The notes under the pieces: generated by a model
Database searches by the model: none
The model's input: only the letters and a program-made list of their open reading frames with translations
Told to the model about the DNA's origin: nothing
Translations under genes and position numbers: made by a program
Virus genome (UHGV): UHGV-1674620
Source: a virus
Strand: one strand, 5' to 3'
DNA: 12,807 nucleotides
Shown: piece by piece, positions 2,643 to 9,542 of the stretch
How positions within the stretch are numbered: the stretch's first letter is position 1
Layout: every line of letters begins with the position of its first letter

Positions 2643-3458
2643 TCAATGAACGGTATCGAGCAGCTTTAACAGCTCAGGAAATCGGGATTCGAAGAAATGC
2701 GGCTGCGTCTCGCGCGGATTTGCAGGACTGGTGATGTTCTTGCCGAACATGCAGCCTTTCGCGGTCAGCGACCAGAATTTTTTGATGTTGTTAATCGCGG
2801 TACGGCTGTATCGTTCGCGTTGTTCAACGATCCCCAGCTTCGCCATCTGGTGATATGCCTGATTAGCCGTCAGGCGGATACCATACTGCTTCAGCAGTGC
2901 ACTCAGCGACAGCGTAGGGCGGCTTGAACCATCTGGCGCATCAGCAGGTGCATCAATGGCATAGATCGGCATAAGTTCAGGAAGACCAGCTACCTTTGAT
3001 AATTTCTGGTATGCACCAAGTTTCGAGGAGTTTGACAGATTTAGAGTCTTTGCTGCTGATTCAAGCAGAATGACCCCGGATTTAATTTTGTCGGATGTGG
3101 TTTCTTCTGGTGATGAATTATGAAGCGCATCAAAAGTACGTATCACTTTTAAGCTGAATGCCGGGCTGATCCACATTGCATATGCATAGACCAGCTCTTT
3201 ACAGACATACGTCCCACCATTGCGCCCCTGAATGGTGATGACAGGAATACTACGGGAATCTCCCGTAGTTTCTTCTTCCAATAATTCCACAAGAGCCTTC
3301 GTTTCAGGACGACGCATAAACTCGTGAACTTCCAGCGAACGGGAGGAGCGATTCTCACCAGCGGCAAGAAGAGCAGCTTTCTGAAGGTCGTTAAGACAGT
3401 AGTTAGATTCGAAGTACTGGCGCACAGAAACGCCATCAATTACAAGCAACTGATTCAT
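2643..3458 (-). CDS. KilA-N domain protein (antirepressor or regulator-like), about 271 aa
   Basis: N-terminal region contains GTYVCKELVYAYAMWISPAFSLKVI, the characteristic KilA-N signature (A.W.SP.F). ATG at 3458 has GGAG 6 nt upstream; the track start at 3470 is GTG. Confidence 0.7.
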   Translation of the reverse strand: MNQLLVIDGVSVRQYFESNYCLNDLQKAALLAAGENRSSRSLEVHEFMRRPETKALVELLEEETTGDSRSIPVITIQGRNGGTYVCKELVYAYAMWISPAFSLKVIRTFDALHNSSPEETTSDKIKSGVILLESAAKTLNLSNSSKLGAYQKLSKVAGLPELMPIYAIDAPADAPDGSSRPTLSLSALLKQYGIRLTANQAYHQMAKLGIVEQRERYSRTAINNIKKFWSLTAKGCMFGKNITSPANPRETQPHFFESRFPELLKLLDTVH

Positions 3459-3555
3459 TGGTTTCTCCACAAATTTTTATCCACGAGCGGGACTGCACTC
3501 CCTTTTCGTTGATGCAGGATGAACTTACTGCGATTTTTAATAGTTATCAAGGATA

Positions 3556-3575
3556 CACTGTTCATAAATACAGTA
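3556..3575. promoter_or_regulatory. Candidate LexA (SOS) box upstream of the KilA-N gene
   Basis: Plus strand cACTGTtcataaatACAGTa: perfect CTGT-N8-ACAG core with AT-rich centre and matching flanks, in the 150-bp intergenic spacer about 100 bp upstream of the KilA-N ATG. Adjacent minus-strand promoter-like hexamers are TTGATA (3550..3545), 17-bp spacer, TAAGTT (3527..3522). Confidence 0.55.
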
Positions 3576-3620: not shown

Positions 3621-4016
3621 TTACCGAGTTGCTAATTTGCAACTCGCTTTTTCGTACTTACTGATAGTGATCTCGACCTTCCCTTCCGGGATAACCGGTC
3701 CCCACTCCACCAGCATTCTTTTCACCTGGCTGTCGTCTTCCCACACACCCGCGTGGGTCAGGGCGTCAAACAGCGCCTTGTTATAGTTGTCCAGATCGCG
3801 GATCCGGTTATCCGGAGGAAACAACACGATCTCCACTGAAGCAGGTGCCGACGTTGGTTTCGGCAGACGACGTAACTGCTCAACTATTGCTGCACACGCC
3901 GCGCTCTGGAATTTTCGCCCCGCCGCGCTTATCAGGCTCTTACCAGCAAACGCCCCTTTGTTGGGGTGTCGCCAGTACGTGTTCACGCTGGGCGGAAAAG
4001 GCAGTATTAGCTTCAT
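3621..4016 (-). CDS. rusA: Crossover junction endodeoxyribonuclease RusA (Holliday junction resolvase)
   Basis: 131 aa; N-terminal MKLILPFPPSVNTYWRH and ...RDLDNYNKALFDALTHAGVWEDDSQV... match the RusA family (compare DLP12 RusA LPWPPSNNRYY...[27 protein letters not shown], from memory). Start overlaps the upstream stop by 4 nt. Confidence 0.85.
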   Translation of the reverse strand: MKLILPFPPSVNTYWRHPNKGAFAGKSLISAAGRKFQSAACAAIVEQLRRLPKPTSAPASVEIVLFPPDNRIRDLDNYNKALFDALTHAGVWEDDSQVKRMLVEWGPVIPEGKVEITISKYEKASCKLATR

Positions 4017-4760: not shown

Positions 4761-5744
4761 TCACCCCCTGAATCCTGCCGGAATCTGGCTGTAGTCCACG
4801 TTGTCGTAACTGGCTTTGAAGTACGGGTCCTCGCGTCTGGCTGCAGATACCGCAGGAACTTCCCAGGATTCTTCGAAATGACGATCCGGACCAAAGAACG
4901 TCGACGCCTGCTTCACGAACTGGGTACCGGTATTTCCAGAGACACGCACCCAGGCGGCATAGCGTTTCACACCGTCGAGCATGGTTTCGGGTGTCACACC
5001 TTCCCTGATTCGGGCTTTCCAGGCTTTAAAAGCGGCGGATTTTGAATTACCACCAGCACGTTTGGGATATTCCTGCCAGACCTGTTCAAATTCCGGTGAA
5101 TATTCCTGTCGGGCAGAACGCGCTGGCGCAGACGCGTCAGCGGATGCATCAATAGTGTTTTTAGTCTCCGTTGTAATCTCTGTAGTAATCTCTGTATTTG
5201 TATCAACATTCGGCGTATCCCCTGTTCCGTTATGACGTCGGGGGGTGTTCCGTTTTAACGTAATAGCTGTATCGCTGATTGCATTATTGCTGTTACTTTC
5301 TGGCGAAACAGAAGAAGGTGTGGTGATGGCCGCAATTGCCTGTGGGTTGATCCCGACAAACAAAATATTGCTGCATTTCACCCCATCGAGCATTTCCACC
5401 GTGCGTAAATCCAGAGTAATAAACCCTGCATCGCGCAGACGCTTCAGCGCATCTGCGGTTTCCCTTTTCCCGAAACCAAACTGCTCAGCAAACGCCTGGT
5501 AGCTTCTTTGCAGTTTGTCGCCCTGAAAACGCTTGCGATATCCCAGCAACGCTCCGGTGTGCTCATCCCTGACCTCTGTCGGGCGGTACCAGTAAACGAT
5601 CTCTGAAAGCAGAGCGATAGCCGTCGCATCCGGACGCCCACTGGGTAGTCGAATATATTTCCACCAGGTCGCAGGTGTAACATTGCCGGAAATATTAATT
5701 TGACCAATAGCCATAACTTCCGGTGTGGGGGCGTAACGGCTCAT
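4761..5744 (-). CDS. Putative phage replication initiation protein (O-like organiser) with low-complexity central linker
   Basis: 327 aa; winged-helix-like N-terminal region (...KRETADALKRLRDAGFITLD), a central S/T/N/D-rich linker including TEITTEITTE, and a C-terminal ...FEQVWQEYPKR...AFKAWKARIREGV... region. Sits where O lies in lambdoid phages. ATG is preceded by AAGGAGG and overlaps the upstream stop as ATGA. Family assignment is tentative. Confidence 0.55.
   Translation of the reverse strand: MSRYAPTPEVMAIGQINISGNVTPATWWKYIRLPSGRPDATAIALLSEIVYWYRPTEVRDEHTGALLGYRKRFQGDKLQRSYQAFAEQFGFGKRETADALKRLRDAGFITLDLRTVEMLDGVKCSNILFVGINPQAIAAITTPSSVSPESNSNNAISDTAITLKRNTPRRHNGTGDTPNVDTNTEITTEITTETKNTIDASADASAPARSARQEYSPEFEQVWQEYPKRAGGNSKSAAFKAWKARIREGVTPETMLDGVKRYAAWVRVSGNTGTQFVKQASTFFGPDRHFEESWEVPAVSAARREDPYFKASYDNVDYSQIPAGFRG
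5161..5196. repeat. Tandem 12-bp direct repeats (iteron-like) inside the O-like gene; candidate replication origin
   Basis: GTAATCTCTGTA at 5173..5184 and again at 5185..5196, preceded by a degenerate copy TTAGTCTCCGTT (5161..5172). A further pair of 15-mers, TGTTCCGTT(A/T)T(G/A)ACG, lies at 5223..5237 and 5246..5260. Confidence 0.4.
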
Positions 5745-6040: not shown

Positions 6041-6261
6041 GCCACACCTCCCAGACGCTTAAACATTTTTCCGGAGCAAAAGGCTATAAGCGGCATACTG
6101 ATGCGGTAATTACGGCCCAGCGGTTCACAAATCACCTTCTGACATTCACGGTCAACCAGGCTGACACGTAGAACATGCCCTGCAGGCGTGGTGTACCACT
6201 GACCAGGACGAGGACAACGGAAAGTCTGATTGGTAAACCGTTTGAAAATATTCCGGATCAT
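6037..6261 (-). CDS. Hypothetical phage protein, 74 aa, four Cys
   Basis: Track ORF; ATG at 6261 overlaps the Rha-ORF stop (ATGA) and is preceded by a G-rich Shine-Dalgarno; its stop overlaps the next gene's GTG. Confidence 0.4.
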   Translation of the reverse strand: MIRNIFKRFTNQTFRCPRPGQWYTTPAGHVLRVSLVDRECQKVICEPLGRNYRISMPLIAFCSGKMFKRLGGVA

Positions 6262-7406
6262 TTGCGCCCCCTTACCTCTGAAGGGTTCAGCGACAAATTT
6301 ATGAGACTGGCCAGTAGCGCCGCGTCGTTGATGCGGTCATACAGACTTACAGCCAGCGGTGATTCGGCTTTTGCCAACATGGGATAAAGCTGCTGCAGCC
6401 AGACCTGATGAATTGATGAAATGTAGGAATAGAGAACGCTGGCGTTATGTGCAACGTCGCTCAGTACAGAGGGATTTGAAAGCTGTTTCTCCATCTGGTT
6501 AAAGGCATTGATGTATGCCTCTTTGAACTGGGCAGCACGTTTACCCGTGAAACCCATAGCAAGAAACGCAAAGCCGTCGCGGGTTATTTGATAGCAAGGT
6601 AGTTTGCGGCCTGTGCAATCGGTGTAATCACTCACCGAAAAATTGCGGGAAGTGAATGATGCAGAGCATTCAAGCGTGCGGATCTTTTTCAGTACATCGT
6701 CATGACGTTTGGAGAAGAAGTTGGCAACAGCCAGGGATGAAGTAACAGCCTGACCATCAACGATGGCAATTTCAGGTTGAGTGAGGGTTGGGATCGTAGC
6801 CATGATGGCAGCCTCCGTTGACTGTGGAAAACTTCCACCACCGGAGCTGCGAAACTCACTGGTGGCAGACTGAACAGGGTTCGCAGTACCGGCGTCAACG
6901 GAGACCGGCGAGCCTTTCGGCTCCCCTGCCCAGCCCACCATAATTCTGGCGTGCGTGAGCGCGGACGATAAAAAAGACGCTGGCGCGTCATATATCGCCG
7001 TTGACAATTCCGGGCTGCGACCCCCGGCACCCGCTTTATAAGGTGCCTGAGCAGTGTAACGTCCCGGAATTGCAGAATCAATATGCTGGTGGTCCTTCAC
7101 ACTCAACAAAATCACGCCTGAATTTCCACAAAGGACTAAAGCACTCATGCGGGTAGTCTTTGCGAAGATAGATAACGCGCTGTGTTTCTGGCTCCCAACG
7201 AATAACATGAACATAAAGTCCTCTTCCGTCACGAAACCAGCGGTTAAGTTCCTGCACAACTCGCCCCCCACAGTCAGGTAAAGTTCTCTGTGGTTACTTA
7301 CAGCCAGGTGATTTGGTAATCTGCATTCATGCCGTAACAACAGGTGTTCAGCGACGCTGACCACCAGCTGTTGCGACAAACGGTTATTTGCCGTTAAACT
7401 ATTCAT
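6258..7406 (-). CDS. Rha-family phage regulatory protein; the Rha domain is the C-terminal 181 aa (internal start at 6803), preceded by about 200 in-frame codons of unknown function
   Basis: MATIPTLTQPEIAIVDGQAVTSSLAVANFFSKRHDDVLKKIRTLEC is the characteristic Rha N-terminal signature (TSL.VA..F.KRHD.VL..I). The ATG at 6803 has GGAGG 8 nt upstream. The frame stays open upstream to an ATG at 7406 that overlaps the cII-like stop (ATGA). Confidence 0.6.
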   Translation of the reverse strand: MNSLTANNRLSQQLVVSVAEHLLLRHECRLPNHLAVSNHRELYLTVGGELCRNLTAGFVTEEDFMFMLFVGSQKHSALSIFAKTTRMSALVLCGNSGVILLSVKDHQHIDSAIPGRYTAQAPYKAGAGGRSPELSTAIYDAPASFLSSALTHARIMVGWAGEPKGSPVSVDAGTANPVQSATSEFRSSGGGSFPQSTEAAIMATIPTLTQPEIAIVDGQAVTSSLAVANFFSKRHDDVLKKIRTLECSASFTSRNFSVSDYTDCTGRKLPCYQITRDGFAFLAMGFTGKRAAQFKEAYINAFNQMEKQLSNPSVLSDVAHNASVLYSYISSIHQVWLQQLYPMLAKAESPLAVSLYDRINDAALLASLINLSLNPSEVRGRK

Positions 7407-7960
7407 GCGTTAGTTTCTCCACAACCAGAAGCAATCGACGCCACGACGCCCGGAGCTGCACACTCGCGGGCGTTACTATTTTCTGGAGCGCAGAAGATTT
7501 TGTAGACCAGTGCTGCATGCTCCTGGAGCTTCGAAATTGAGAGGTACAGCTCGTCGTTAATTGCTGTCTTCTCATGCGGTTCCACTACACCGTCTTCGAT
7601 TGCTGAACGAATCTGTCTGGAATAACTGCCGATCTGTTCAATGACTTCCAGCAGACGCTGGTTAATATCGGCGTTGTCCACATCCTCGACGTCAGGAAGA
7701 GACACAAAGACGCCATTTGCAGACTGCGCCACAGCGTCAGCAATGAAGTGAGTTCCACCAGCACGTTGTAAAATCATTGCCCATCCCAGCGGGAAAATCT
7801 GATCGCCATCGGCACGAAGGCGATTGAATAAAGCGTTCTCTGTTACATCCAGCCACTCAGCAGCTTCAGCGTAACCCCCCGGCAATGCCGCGATAGTTTT
7901 TCTGACAGCTTTCACGTACCACTCAGGTTGTTTTTCCACTTTCCAATGATGCTTACCCAC
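7403..7960 (-). CDS. CII-like phage regulatory protein (CP76-type), 185 aa
   Basis: Immediately downstream of cro, overlapping it by 8 nt; GTG start with AGGAGG 6 nt upstream. Weak resemblance by memory to the phage regulatory protein CII (CP76) family, which occupies this position in E. coli prophages. Confidence 0.5.
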   Translation of the reverse strand: MGKHHWKVEKQPEWYVKAVRKTIAALPGGYAEAAEWLDVTENALFNRLRADGDQIFPLGWAMILQRAGGTHFIADAVAQSANGVFVSLPDVEDVDNADINQRLLEVIEQIGSYSRQIRSAIEDGVVEPHEKTAINDELYLSISKLQEHAALVYKIFCAPENSNARECAAPGVVASIASGCGETNA

Positions 7961-8213
7961 GGCTTACCTCCTGTTCCTGTGGTTTAAACCCATTCTGGTT
8001 TTGGCTAGATTGAAAACGTGCCGGATAAAGAATCTGCATTTCGCTGATTTCACCCTTAAAAAAATTGGCCAGACGTTCTGCAAGGTCGATAGATGGAATT
8101 TGTTCCAGTCTTTCAATACGACTCAGCGTCGCTGGATTGACCTGAACGCCCGCAGCAACATGCTGCAAAGTAAATCCGTGCGCCTTACGCACATTCCGTA
8201 ATGGTGATTGCAT
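7953..8213 (-). CDS. Cro-like HTH repressor
   Basis: 86 aa with helix-turn-helix GFTLQHVAAGVQVNPATLSRIE; divergently transcribed from the cI-like gene across a 97-bp operator region; GGAGG upstream of the ATG. Confidence 0.75.
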   Translation of the reverse strand: MQSPLRNVRKAHGFTLQHVAAGVQVNPATLSRIERLEQIPSIDLAERLANFFKGEISEMQILYPARFQSSQNQNGFKPQEQEVSRG

Positions 8214-8310
8214 ATAACCTCCACATATTGCGTGATGAGCATATTATTTCACGCAAATATTTTGCGCAAGTTGATTTGCTTAACGCGCAATAAAGAAATG
8301 TAATAAACGC
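8214..8310. promoter_or_regulatory. Immunity operator/promoter region (OR-like) with divergent PR and PRM candidates
   Basis: Minus-strand PR candidate: -35 TTGCGC (plus 8264..8269), 17-bp spacer, -10 TAATAT (plus 8241..8246), then a leader with GGAGG. Plus-strand PRM candidate: -35 TTGCTT (8276..8281), 17-bp spacer, -10 TGTAAT (8299..8304), which would start transcription at or near the cI ATG (no Shine-Dalgarno upstream of cI). Dyad elements: TTGCTTAACGCGCAA (8276..8290), palindrome TTGCGCAA (8262..8269), TTGCGTGATGAGCAT (8228..8242). Confidence 0.55.
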
Positions 8311-9003
8311 ATGAACATAGGAAATCGAGTCAGACAACTTCGCCAGGCGAAGAACATGAAAATCGCCGATCTCGCTGAAGCAATAGGAGTGGATGCGGCG
8401 AATATCTCGCGCCTCGAAACAGGTAAGCAGAAACAATTCACTGAACAAGCCCTGAGTAATATTGCCAGGAGCTTAGGTGTTGATATTGCTGATCTCTTTA
8501 CCTCAGACCTCAAAAGTAATACTGTATGTAAAAACAGTATTAGTGAGGATGTTGCGCAGGTGAAGGATGTATTCCGTATTGAAATGCTGGATGTCAGTGC
8601 CAGTGCGGGAAATGGCCTTATCCAGGGCGGTGATGTCATTGATGTGATTCATGCCATTGAATACAGAACTGATAATGCTGTATCGATGTTTGGTGGACGA
8701 CCAGCAAATCACATTAAAGTTATCAACGTTCGTGGGGACAGTATGTGTCCAACCATTGAGCCAGGAGATCTCATCTTCGTTGATATCAGTATCAATCAGT
8801 TTGATGGGGATGGTATATATGTATTTGGTTTTGATGATAAAATTTACGTCAAACGACTGCAAATGATACCTGATAAACTGCTGGTAATTTCTGATAATCA
8901 GATTTACCGCGAATGGGGAATTACCAGCGAAAACGAACATCGGTTTATGGTCTTTGGAAAGGTCTTAATCAGTCAGTCACAAACCCTTAAGCGACACAAT
9001 TAA
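8311..9003 (+). CDS. CI-like prophage repressor (N-terminal XRE-type HTH, C-terminal S24 LexA-like autopeptidase domain)
   Basis: 230 aa; HTH MKIADLAEAIGVDAANISRLETGKQ; S24 motifs VRGDSMCPTIEPGDLIFVD (Ser) and IYVKRLQ (Lys), with a candidate Ala-Gly cleavage site in DVSASAGNG; divergent from cro. Confidence 0.9.
   Translation: MNIGNRVRQLRQAKNMKIADLAEAIGVDAANISRLETGKQKQFTEQALSNIARSLGVDIADLFTSDLKSNTVCKNSISEDVAQVKDVFRIEMLDVSASAGNGLIQGGDVIDVIHAIEYRTDNAVSMFGGRPANHIKVINVRGDSMCPTIEPGDLIFVDISINQFDGDGIYVFGFDDKIYVKRLQMIPDKLLVISDNQIYREWGITSENEHRFMVFGKVLISQSQTLKRHN
8520..8539. promoter_or_regulatory. Candidate LexA (SOS) box inside the cI coding sequence (linker between HTH and S24 domains)
   Basis: TACTGTATGTAAAAACAGTA: 20-mer with perfect TACTGT-N8-ACAGTA architecture (12 fixed positions matching the consensus TACTGT(AT)4ACAGTA); encodes NTVCKNS of CI. 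Confidence 0.45.
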
Positions 9004-9024
9004 CCCCCTACCTCAACATCAATT

Positions 9025-9046
9025 AGCCACCAGAAGGTGGCTTTTC
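9025..9046 (+). terminator. Putative terminator after cI
   Basis: AGCCACC-AGAA-GGTGGCT hairpin (7-bp stem) followed by TTTT, beginning 22 nt after the cI stop. Confidence 0.4.
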
Positions 9047-9059
9047 ATTACCCACCAAA

Positions 9060-9098
9060 TTGCATATCTCGCAATAAAAACACTTGCATAATGCGCAA
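9060..9098 (+). promoter_or_regulatory. OL-like operator pair, possible PL region
   Basis: Two 15-bp dyads with the same architecture as the OR element: TTGCATATCTCGCAA (9060..9074) and TTGCATAATGCGCAA (9084..9098), centres 24 bp apart. -10-like CATAAT at 9087..9092; no clean -35 at 17-bp spacing. Confidence 0.4.
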
Positions 9099-9542
9099 CT
9101 TCATTTTATCTTTCTTTCCAGACCTACAAACAAGGTACTAACAAAATTTGGTTGTAACACGGCGTATGGCACATGCGTCGTTAGCGGTCTGGGGACGTTA
9201 AAGGGGACAATCCACTCCTTGCTCGGGCAAACAAACCAGGTAGCCGGAATGTGCAAGTCAATGAGGATGCTGATAAGACGCCTAACCAGCGTGGCGATTC
9301 GGTTTGACGCCTGGGAAGAGACCAGGACGCAACGATGAGAGCATTTATGGAGCCGCGACAAAGTGTGGTGCCGTAACTGGCTAAGTGCTCTCAGCGTTGT
9401 GGTGAATGCGCAGGCTGATGCGCGAAAGACATTGCAGCTATTGCGGAAAAGAGCTGTTCGGCGGGGCAATTAAACGCCCGTGAGAGTCTGAAATAACCGC
9501 AAGCCGGAGATCAGCACCGGTCACCACAACAGCCACTGCTTT

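Follow-up and report, generated by a model that had tools for sequence, protein, structure and literature searches.

A probable LexA operator conserved inside a lambdoid cI gene may govern a nested gene for the C-terminal part of the repressor

The DNA considered here, which we call the window, is a stretch of 12,807 nucleotides from virus genome UHGV-1674620 that carries the early region of a lambdoid prophage, and in it a cI-type repressor gene carries a near-perfect LexA box in the codons that link its two domains. The explanation that best accounts for our observations as a whole is that the box is a real, selected LexA operator controlling an internal plus-strand promoter of cI, a reading to which sequence comparison leads us to give a probability of roughly 0.5. 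The parts of this reading differ in strength. We are close to certain that the box is a selected DNA element, and it is very probably bound by LexA as an operator; that it controls a nested gene for a C-terminal isoform of the repressor appears slightly better than an even bet from the sequences compared, and that this isoform serves as a dominant-negative inducer is a tentative proposal, at odds of about one to two. The elements on which the argument depends are given below in window coordinates.

8311-9003, plus strand: cI-type prophage repressor gene, 230 aa, with a helix-turn-helix (HTH) domain, a linker (residues about 65-98) and a peptidase S24 domain
8497-8502, plus strand: candidate -35 hexamer TTTACC, read from the sequence, 17 bp before TACTGT
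8520-8525, plus strand: candidate -10 hexamer TACTGT, the left arm of the box, of the form TAnnnT, proposed from geometry only
8520-8539, unstranded: putative LexA operator (SOS box) TACTGTATGTAAAAACAGTA, in the linker codons, 210 bp from the cI start
About 8531-8534, plus strand: predicted transcription start, from the geometry of the -10 hexamer
8545-8549, plus strand: Shine-Dalgarno (SD)-like GAGGA, 10 nt before the GTG at 8560, anti-SD duplex of -6.3 kcal/mol
8560-9003, plus strand: predicted nested open reading frame (ORF) with a GTG start, 147 aa corresponding to cI residues 84-230, in the cI frame, 20 nt after the box
8605-8610, plus strand: putative cleavage site Ala99-Gly100
8740-8742, plus strand: Ser144
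8851-8853, plus strand: Lys181

A preliminary description of this DNA had reported a near-perfect LexA box in the linker of cI, between the HTH and S24 domains, and both the box and its location were borne out by our analysis. The sequence TACTGTATGTAAAAACAGTA is found at 8520-8539 with arms TACTGT and ACAGTA that match the consensus in 12 of 12 bases, and the Pfam domains lie on either side of it, the HTH at residues 7-64 (HTH_3, HTH_26 and HTH_31 at 3-64) and Peptidase_S24 at residues 104-218 (E = 6e-19). As consensus we took the gammaproteobacterial LexA operator, TACTG-(TA)5-CAGTA, with its invariant CTG and CAG triplets 10 bp apart, these triplets being the key bases of the operator (PMC9621596). 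Against the full consensus, TACTGTATATATATACAGTA, the box agrees in 17 of 20 positions; no match with three mismatches or fewer arose in 200 dinucleotide-preserving shuffles, and the core CTGT-N8-ACAG was observed three times in the window for 0.18 expected. The codons under the box run from the third base of N70 through T71, V72, C73, K74, N75 and S76 to the first base of I77. The same description had called it a second box, and a weaker one, CACTGTTCATAAATACAGTA, is indeed present at 3556-3575.

In order to see whether the box is shared by related repressors, homologues were gathered by protein similarity alone, so that the sample was blind to the box, from species-representative genomes, viral contigs, named phage genomes and metagenomes. 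Clade 1 is made up of 173 alleles that differ in nucleotide sequence and have protein identities of 67-100%, from Escherichia, Shigella, Citrobacter, Klebsiella, Salmonella, Pseudescherichia, Buttiauxella, Trabulsiella and other hosts, and the motif (T)ACTGT-N8-(A/C)CAGT stands at the same place in every one of them. Clade 2, in which Cronobacter phage ENT47670 is joined by many contigs of viral and metagenomic origin, has proteins about 50% identical to that of the window and the same linker box, which was found in every full-length allele recovered at an identity of at least 64% to the ENT47670 repressor; a third lineage (L454) has the box as well. Several cI alleles contain the exact operator of umuD, TACTGTATATAAAAACAGTA, and across 45 lineages the spacer is A/T-rich, with mostly A or T at positions 7, 9, 10, 11, 13 and 15 of the box. 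The hosts of the box-bearing alleles all belong to the Enterobacterales, whose LexA recognises SOS boxes of the TACTGT type.

Conservation of the box at synonymous positions, proposed earlier as a check, came out strongly positive. Among 36 representatives less than 93% identical, the mean third-position entropy of the seven box codons is 0.10 bit, compared with a gene mean of 1.22, and on a neighbour-joining tree the box requires the fewest third-position changes of any seven-codon window (4 parsimony steps vs. a median of 70; rank 1 of 225). The linker around the box is the most variable part of the gene and the box itself the least variable. Thr71 is always encoded by ACT and Ser76 always by AGT, two of the five single-codon columns among 129 conserved, degenerate columns. 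The residue that precedes Thr71 may be N, T, S, F, D, P, A or I, and its codon ends in T in 172 of the 173 alleles; residue 75 may be N, H, Y, D, T, S or P, and the third base of its codon is invariably C, the base with which CAG begins.

These patterns bear directly on the proposal that the box is a chance match, the result of a T-V-x-x-x-S constraint on the protein, or the trace of a recombination junction between repressor modules, the last of which had been put forward in the preliminary description. The site does lie at a domain boundary, and related phages do shuffle repressor domains, as seen from the C-terminal-only matches of ST-29 and Omnitron. However, the shuffles never reproduced the match, synonymous sites are fixed, bases are kept despite changes of amino acid and clades about 50% identical share the box, so that chance, protein-level constraint and a recombination scar are all rejected as extremely improbable; a relic of recombination would not stay invariant at synonymous sites across clades so distant. 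Against these readings there is also the hypervariability of the flanking linker and the low confidence of residues 67-85 in an AlphaFold model of the repressor (pLDDT below 50), a model of moderate overall quality (mean pLDDT 66) that was used solely to call the linker low-confidence and according to which this segment is probably flexible.

The box is lost in two members of the box-bearing group. One is allele P0017 (L341, Logan SRR28408694 contig), whose protein is 73% identical to that of the window; its linker reads NNIIRGHNNN, VSVSAG replaces VSASAG, and the gene adjoins a HigB toxin/HTH pair on a contig of 1.9 kb. The other, metagenome contig L455, has neither the box nor the Ala-Gly site. 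A further metagenome contig, L457, carries a degraded box, TACTGGGGTTTTATCCAGTA, and reads FAANEG at the Ala-Gly site; box and cleavage site may decay together. In L407 (IMGVR_UViG_646311918_000001), a gene of the ENT47670 type is shorter by 1 nt and its frame is broken just 5' of the box, leaving the box and the C-terminal part alone in frame; either an error of sequencing or a gene that naturally encodes the C-terminal part alone could account for this. Among more distant relatives, a CTG-N10-CAG motif was sought in the linkers of the P22-type ST160 c2, HK022 cI, Turner, RAH1, Providencia and Mannheimia alleles (39-44% identity) and found in none. The repressor of the e14 prophage of E. coli K-12, YmfK, was considered as a carrier of the box and discarded, as it is unrelated to the window cI and has no box.

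The location of the box with respect to the signals around it recalls two SOS genes of E. coli K-12, umuD and sulA, whose regions were read for comparison. In umuD the order is TTGATC, 17 bp, TACTGTATATAAAAACAGTA, 19 nt and ATG; in sulA, TTGATC, 17 bp, TACTGTACATCCATACAGTA (beginning with TACTGT), 22 nt and ATG; and in the window, TTTACC, 17 bp, TACTGTATGTAAAAACAGTA, 20 nt and GTG. Common to the three are the TACTGT left arm placed 17 bp after a TT-rich hexamer and a start codon 19-22 nt past the box, and TACTGT is taken to be the working -10 hexamer of umuD and sulA. The resemblance to umuD extends to the predicted product, which has the S24 fold, no DNA-binding domain and a short N-terminal arm before the cleavage site; the closest solved structure to the C-terminal domain of the repressor, by sequence, is UmuD/UmuD'. 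On the other hand, the unit of the window sits in frame inside a larger repressor gene, starts with GTG and has a weaker -35-like hexamer, TTTACC. It does not belong to an operon of the umuDC type either, given that the downstream ORFs yielded no polymerase domain and that a terminator at 9025-9042 and the OL operators follow cI. An operator like that of umuD presumably confers tight repression and late derepression. Within the -35-like hexamer, the codon of Phe63 is TTT in all 36 representatives, another of the five single-codon columns among the 129.

The nested ORF contains the cleavage site and the S24/dimerisation domain and lacks the HTH. We counted as a start any in-frame GTG or ATG that lies 3' of the box and 5' of the Ala-Gly site and for which the anti-SD duplex has an energy of -5.5 kcal/mol or lower. 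By this criterion an SD sequence with an in-frame start is present in the 36 representatives of clade 1 and in 159 of 161 distinct box contexts (the remaining two reach -5.4), while elsewhere in the gene 5% of in-frame start-like codons qualify. A single fixed internal start was considered and abandoned, for the Val of the DVF motif is encoded by GTG, GTA, GTT or TTG and the position is thus not fixed; what holds instead is at least one SD sequence and start per allele, placed 16, 13 or 5 codons ahead of the Gly. Alleles in which the Val at -13 is GTA or GTT all have a GTG at -5 with GAGG 8 nt upstream, and in the non-redundant set 31 have the upstream start only, 5 have both, 9 have the downstream one only and none has neither. 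In L405 and L406 the Val is changed to Met (GTG to ATG), so that a start codon is retained. Codon choice in clade 2 points the same way: the Gly of the SD sequence is GGG in 26 of 31 alleles (9.6% elsewhere), the Arg is AGA or AGG in 24 of 24 (26% elsewhere), and alleles with other residues at this place still keep a purine-rich SD sequence. Outside the box-bearing group, SD sequence and start are absent from five of seven box-less relatives at 39-49% identity (Turner, RAH1, P22-type ST160 c2, HK022 and Providencia).

Several observations weigh against an internal promoter and a selected internal start. The arrangement TTTACC-17-TACTGT scores 7 of 12 as a promoter, a weak match, and a consensus promoter scan of positions 7900-9300 gave nothing above threshold at the box on either strand, so the promoter proposal rests on geometry and comparison. 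The -35-like TT(T/C)(A/T)C is fixed also by the conserved residues Leu-Phe-Thr/Ser, which makes its conservation inseparable from protein constraint, and in clade 2 the hexamer is merely TTCTCT. With respect to the start, the box-less Mannheimia, Omnitron and P0017 alleles do have an SD sequence and start, Val is a common residue and GTG a frequent codon, and linkers rich in Glu, Gly and Lys yield purine strings that resemble SD sequences. Moreover, the sequences are phylogenetically related, hence the allele counts overstate the number of independent events, and the start may have moved from -13 to -5 just once. Finally, the direction in which the isoform would act on the repressor is something that we infer, and the opposite direction, protection from RecA, has a precedent in the Hex protein of phage 434. 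With these points in the balance, the earlier suggestion of an intragenic LexA site that serves an internal promoter fits the comparative evidence best, that is, the conserved box, ribosome-binding site and in-frame start, and falls short in the promoter scan.

Other roles for a true LexA operator at this site have to be weighed against the nested gene. The box could be the operator of a minus-strand promoter, as suggested in the preliminary description, driving an antisense transcript through the 5' half of cI and from there into cro and the lytic operon. Being palindromic, the box presents ACAGTA as TACTGT on the other strand, and transcription towards cro upon SOS induction would be biologically sensible. 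No other part of the gene, however, varies as much as the 30 nt in which the -35 hexamer of such a promoter would fall (5-15 parsimony steps at each position), and over 45 lineages position 20 of the box, the first base of the would-be -10, is split between A (19) and G (25), in contrast to position 1, where 44 have T. Given this variable flank and variable position 20, together with the outcome of the promoter scan at the box, a minus-strand promoter finds no support and we regard it as improbable. LexA could alternatively act as a roadblock or modulator of full-length transcription, such that cI expression rises upon LexA cleavage and neither an internal promoter nor a short protein exists. 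A strong operator match in a transcribed region, 210 bp from the cI start, is what this would require, the weak promoter match agrees with it, and nucleotide conservation by itself fits it equally well. What it leaves unexplained is the conserved ribosome-binding site and in-frame start of the 159 box contexts, the rare codons used for the SD sequence, the absence of both signals from most box-less relatives and the spacing identical to that of umuD and sulA; besides, making more repressor during the SOS response runs counter to induction. Of the roadblock, also raised in the preliminary description, we thus keep the agreement with nucleotide conservation, and consider it unlikely as a full account.

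About equally unlikely, in our estimation, is that a LexA-controlled isoform exists and spares the repressor, either by competing for activated RecA and so setting a damage threshold, or as a damage-tolerance factor of the UmuD' kind. The Hex protein of phage 434, encoded by an ORF that overlaps the repressor gene, blocks the RecA-stimulated cleavage of the repressor (PMC3564112), and the isoform would retain the Ala-Gly site and the S24 fold, has UmuD' as its best solved match and would be expressed from an operator with the geometry of that of umuD. Against this possibility, no umuC-like partner lies downstream, where the terminator and the OL/PL region follow; the identity of the isoform with the dimerisation domain makes mixed oligomers seem unavoidable; and those phage genes under LexA control whose part in the switch is known act as inducers (PMC3121763).

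The nested gene under LexA control would operate as follows. In an undamaged lysogen, LexA would cover the -10 hexamer and the +1 position, keeping the internal promoter off, and full-length cI would be expressed from the upstream maintenance promoter. Cleavage of LexA would free the plus-strand internal promoter, with a start near 8532, and the short mRNA would be translated from GAGGA and the GTG at 8560 into the 147-aa protein, predicted at 16 kDa. Because this isoform (residues 84-230) is identical to the oligomerisation domain of the repressor itself, mixed dimers or oligomers with intact cI are to be expected, and these would bind the operators more weakly. The isoform would then be a built-in, SOS-inducible, dominant-negative antirepressor acting alongside RecA-stimulated cleavage. 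We infer LexA binding, promoter activity, the short protein and its effect on the repressor alike.

Of 5426 complete E. coli genomes, 1040 matched a 1.3-kb query comprising cro, cI and OL at a coverage of at least 80%, and the repressors with a candidate internal SOS gene include those of Stx2a-converting phages, Shigella serotype-converting phages and many resident E. coli prophages. That a widespread family of lambdoid repressors holds a complete SOS gene, from which a dominant-negative C-terminal domain is made upon LexA cleavage, is a possibility that we rate well below even. If it is true, the induction of these prophages depends directly on LexA in addition to RecA-stimulated cleavage, and in the case of the Stx2a phages this dependence extends to the release of Shiga toxin when antibiotics induce the SOS response. 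To autocleavage of the repressor and separate antirepressor genes it would add a third way in which DNA damage induces prophages, and it would provide, in a bacterial virus, a clear case of an internal promoter that gives rise to a dominant-negative isoform of a regulator. It would also mean that the codons of a linker can conceal functional operators and gene starts, at places that annotation pipelines do not inspect.

The repressor itself belongs, judging from its sequence, to the self-cleaving CI/LexA class, as it combines HTH and S24 domains with an Ala-Gly site and a Ser/Lys dyad; A99-G100, S144 (in GDSM) and K181 (in VKRLQ) do not vary among 27 homologues and correspond in alignment to the Ser and Lys motifs of UmuD. 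The same immunity region is annotated as cI/cro in Escherichia phages PhiR47_1 and mEp460, in the Stx2a-converting phages Stx2a_WGPS2/1447 and in Shigella phage SfII. The features that surround the gene are the following.

7403-7960, minus strand: cII/YmfL-like gene
7953-8213, minus strand: cro, divergent from cI
8226-8292, unstranded: OR-like operator cluster of TTGC-N7-GCAA 15-mers, in the cI/cro intergenic region
9025-9042, plus strand: intrinsic terminator-like hairpin, 3' of the cI stop
9060-9098, unstranded: OL-like operators TTGCATATCTCGCAA and TTGCATAATGCGCAA, beyond the cI terminator

The TTGC-N7-GCAA repeats at 8226-8292 and 9060-9098 are probably the OR and OL of this immunity type, and the hairpin would terminate full-length and internal cI transcripts alike. 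A lookalike of a cI operator half-site, TTGCGCA at 8552-8558, falls within a hypervariable stretch and was taken as chance, and a search of Rfam at the site of the box returned no RNA family. Following the OL/PL-like operators, about 440 bp at 9100-9540 gave no match in Rfam and contain no ORF matched by Pfam; the equivalent DNA of mEp460 holds small hypothetical ORFs only, and antitermination signals (nut/put-like) are possible there. The other genes of the window, on the minus strand as well, are an Ash/Rha gene, replication genes, dam, rusA, a KilA-N gene, a DUF968 gene and Q. On the minus strand at 6858-6945 and 6970-7046, Rfam identifies C4 antisense RNA (RF01695, 78.8 bits) and isrK (RF01394, 58.7 bits). 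Both matches fall inside the ORF 6258-7406, which is annotated as Rha and has an Ash domain too; the region, directly after cII, recalls the immI-like c4/antirepressor module of P1, and the 382-aa Rha/Ash ORF is possibly over-extended at its 5' end.

Further LexA-like boxes were noted in this group of phages. The box CACTGTTCATAAATACAGTA occupies the gap between a rusA-like gene (3621-4016, minus strand) and the KilA-N gene (2643-3470, minus strand), and on the minus strand it comes just after TTGAGC-17-TATTAC, so that the KilA-N gene is possibly SOS-controlled; at the equivalent place, CTGT-N8-ACAG is absent in strain G1/2 (L001) and in mEp460 (L002). The third CTGT-N8-ACAG match of the window, CTGTGGTTACTTACAG at 7288-7303, lies in the Rha/Ash ORF; its flanks are poor (CT...CC), its spacer includes G/C, and it is probably due to chance. 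In mEp460, two adjacent LexA-like boxes, CACTGTTTATCCATACAGTT and TACTGTATACAAACACAGTA, precede a DinI-like gene (18310-18357) and one more is found near a DNA methylase gene (572-591), so that several candidate SOS boxes are present in phages of this group. In the e14 prophage of E. coli K-12 (L091), a CTGT-N8-ACAG match, TTCTGTACCAGAAAACAGTT, lies inside ymfI at 5580-5599.

A literature search that covered few subscription-journal papers yielded no account of a LexA box placed within cI and none of a nested isoform of the C-terminal part, and neither is mentioned in PMC6206680, PMC9621596 or PMC8951638. That prophage induction can be wired to the SOS response is known; the compact form, within the repressor gene, would be new. 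Among such wired systems, Tum of phage 186 and AntC of N15 are antirepressors controlled by LexA. GfoA and GfhA of the Gifsy phages are LexA-controlled phage antirepressors too (PMC3121763), and the candidate gene resembles them in that an SOS box on a phage gene would connect prophage induction directly to LexA cleavage. Genes of the GfoA/Tum type are, however, small separate genes outside the immunity region, unrelated in sequence to their repressors and serving repressors that cannot be cleaved, while the candidate ORF 8560-9003 lies within cI, shares its frame and hence is not a separate gene, and in the window cI both the cleavage site and the catalytic dyad are present. Phage 434 Hex offers the parallel of a second protein that originates from within or overlapping the repressor gene and modulates SOS induction (PMC3564112). 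Hex differs in being read in another, partly overlapping ORF on the mRNA of the maintenance promoter; it is constitutive in lysogens and stabilises lysogeny, with no LexA control reported. In transposon Tn5, the transposase Tnp has an N-terminally truncated in-frame isoform, Inh, made from an internal promoter and start, that is devoid of the DNA-binding end and inhibits through mixed oligomers with the full-length protein. The likeness of Tn5 Tnp/Inh to the arrangement of the window is one of logic only, the protein family and the setting being different. The lambda-type cI, P22 C2 and HK022 repressors have the same domain architecture, C-terminal domains 39-44% identical, a divergent cI-cro switch and both OR and OL operators.

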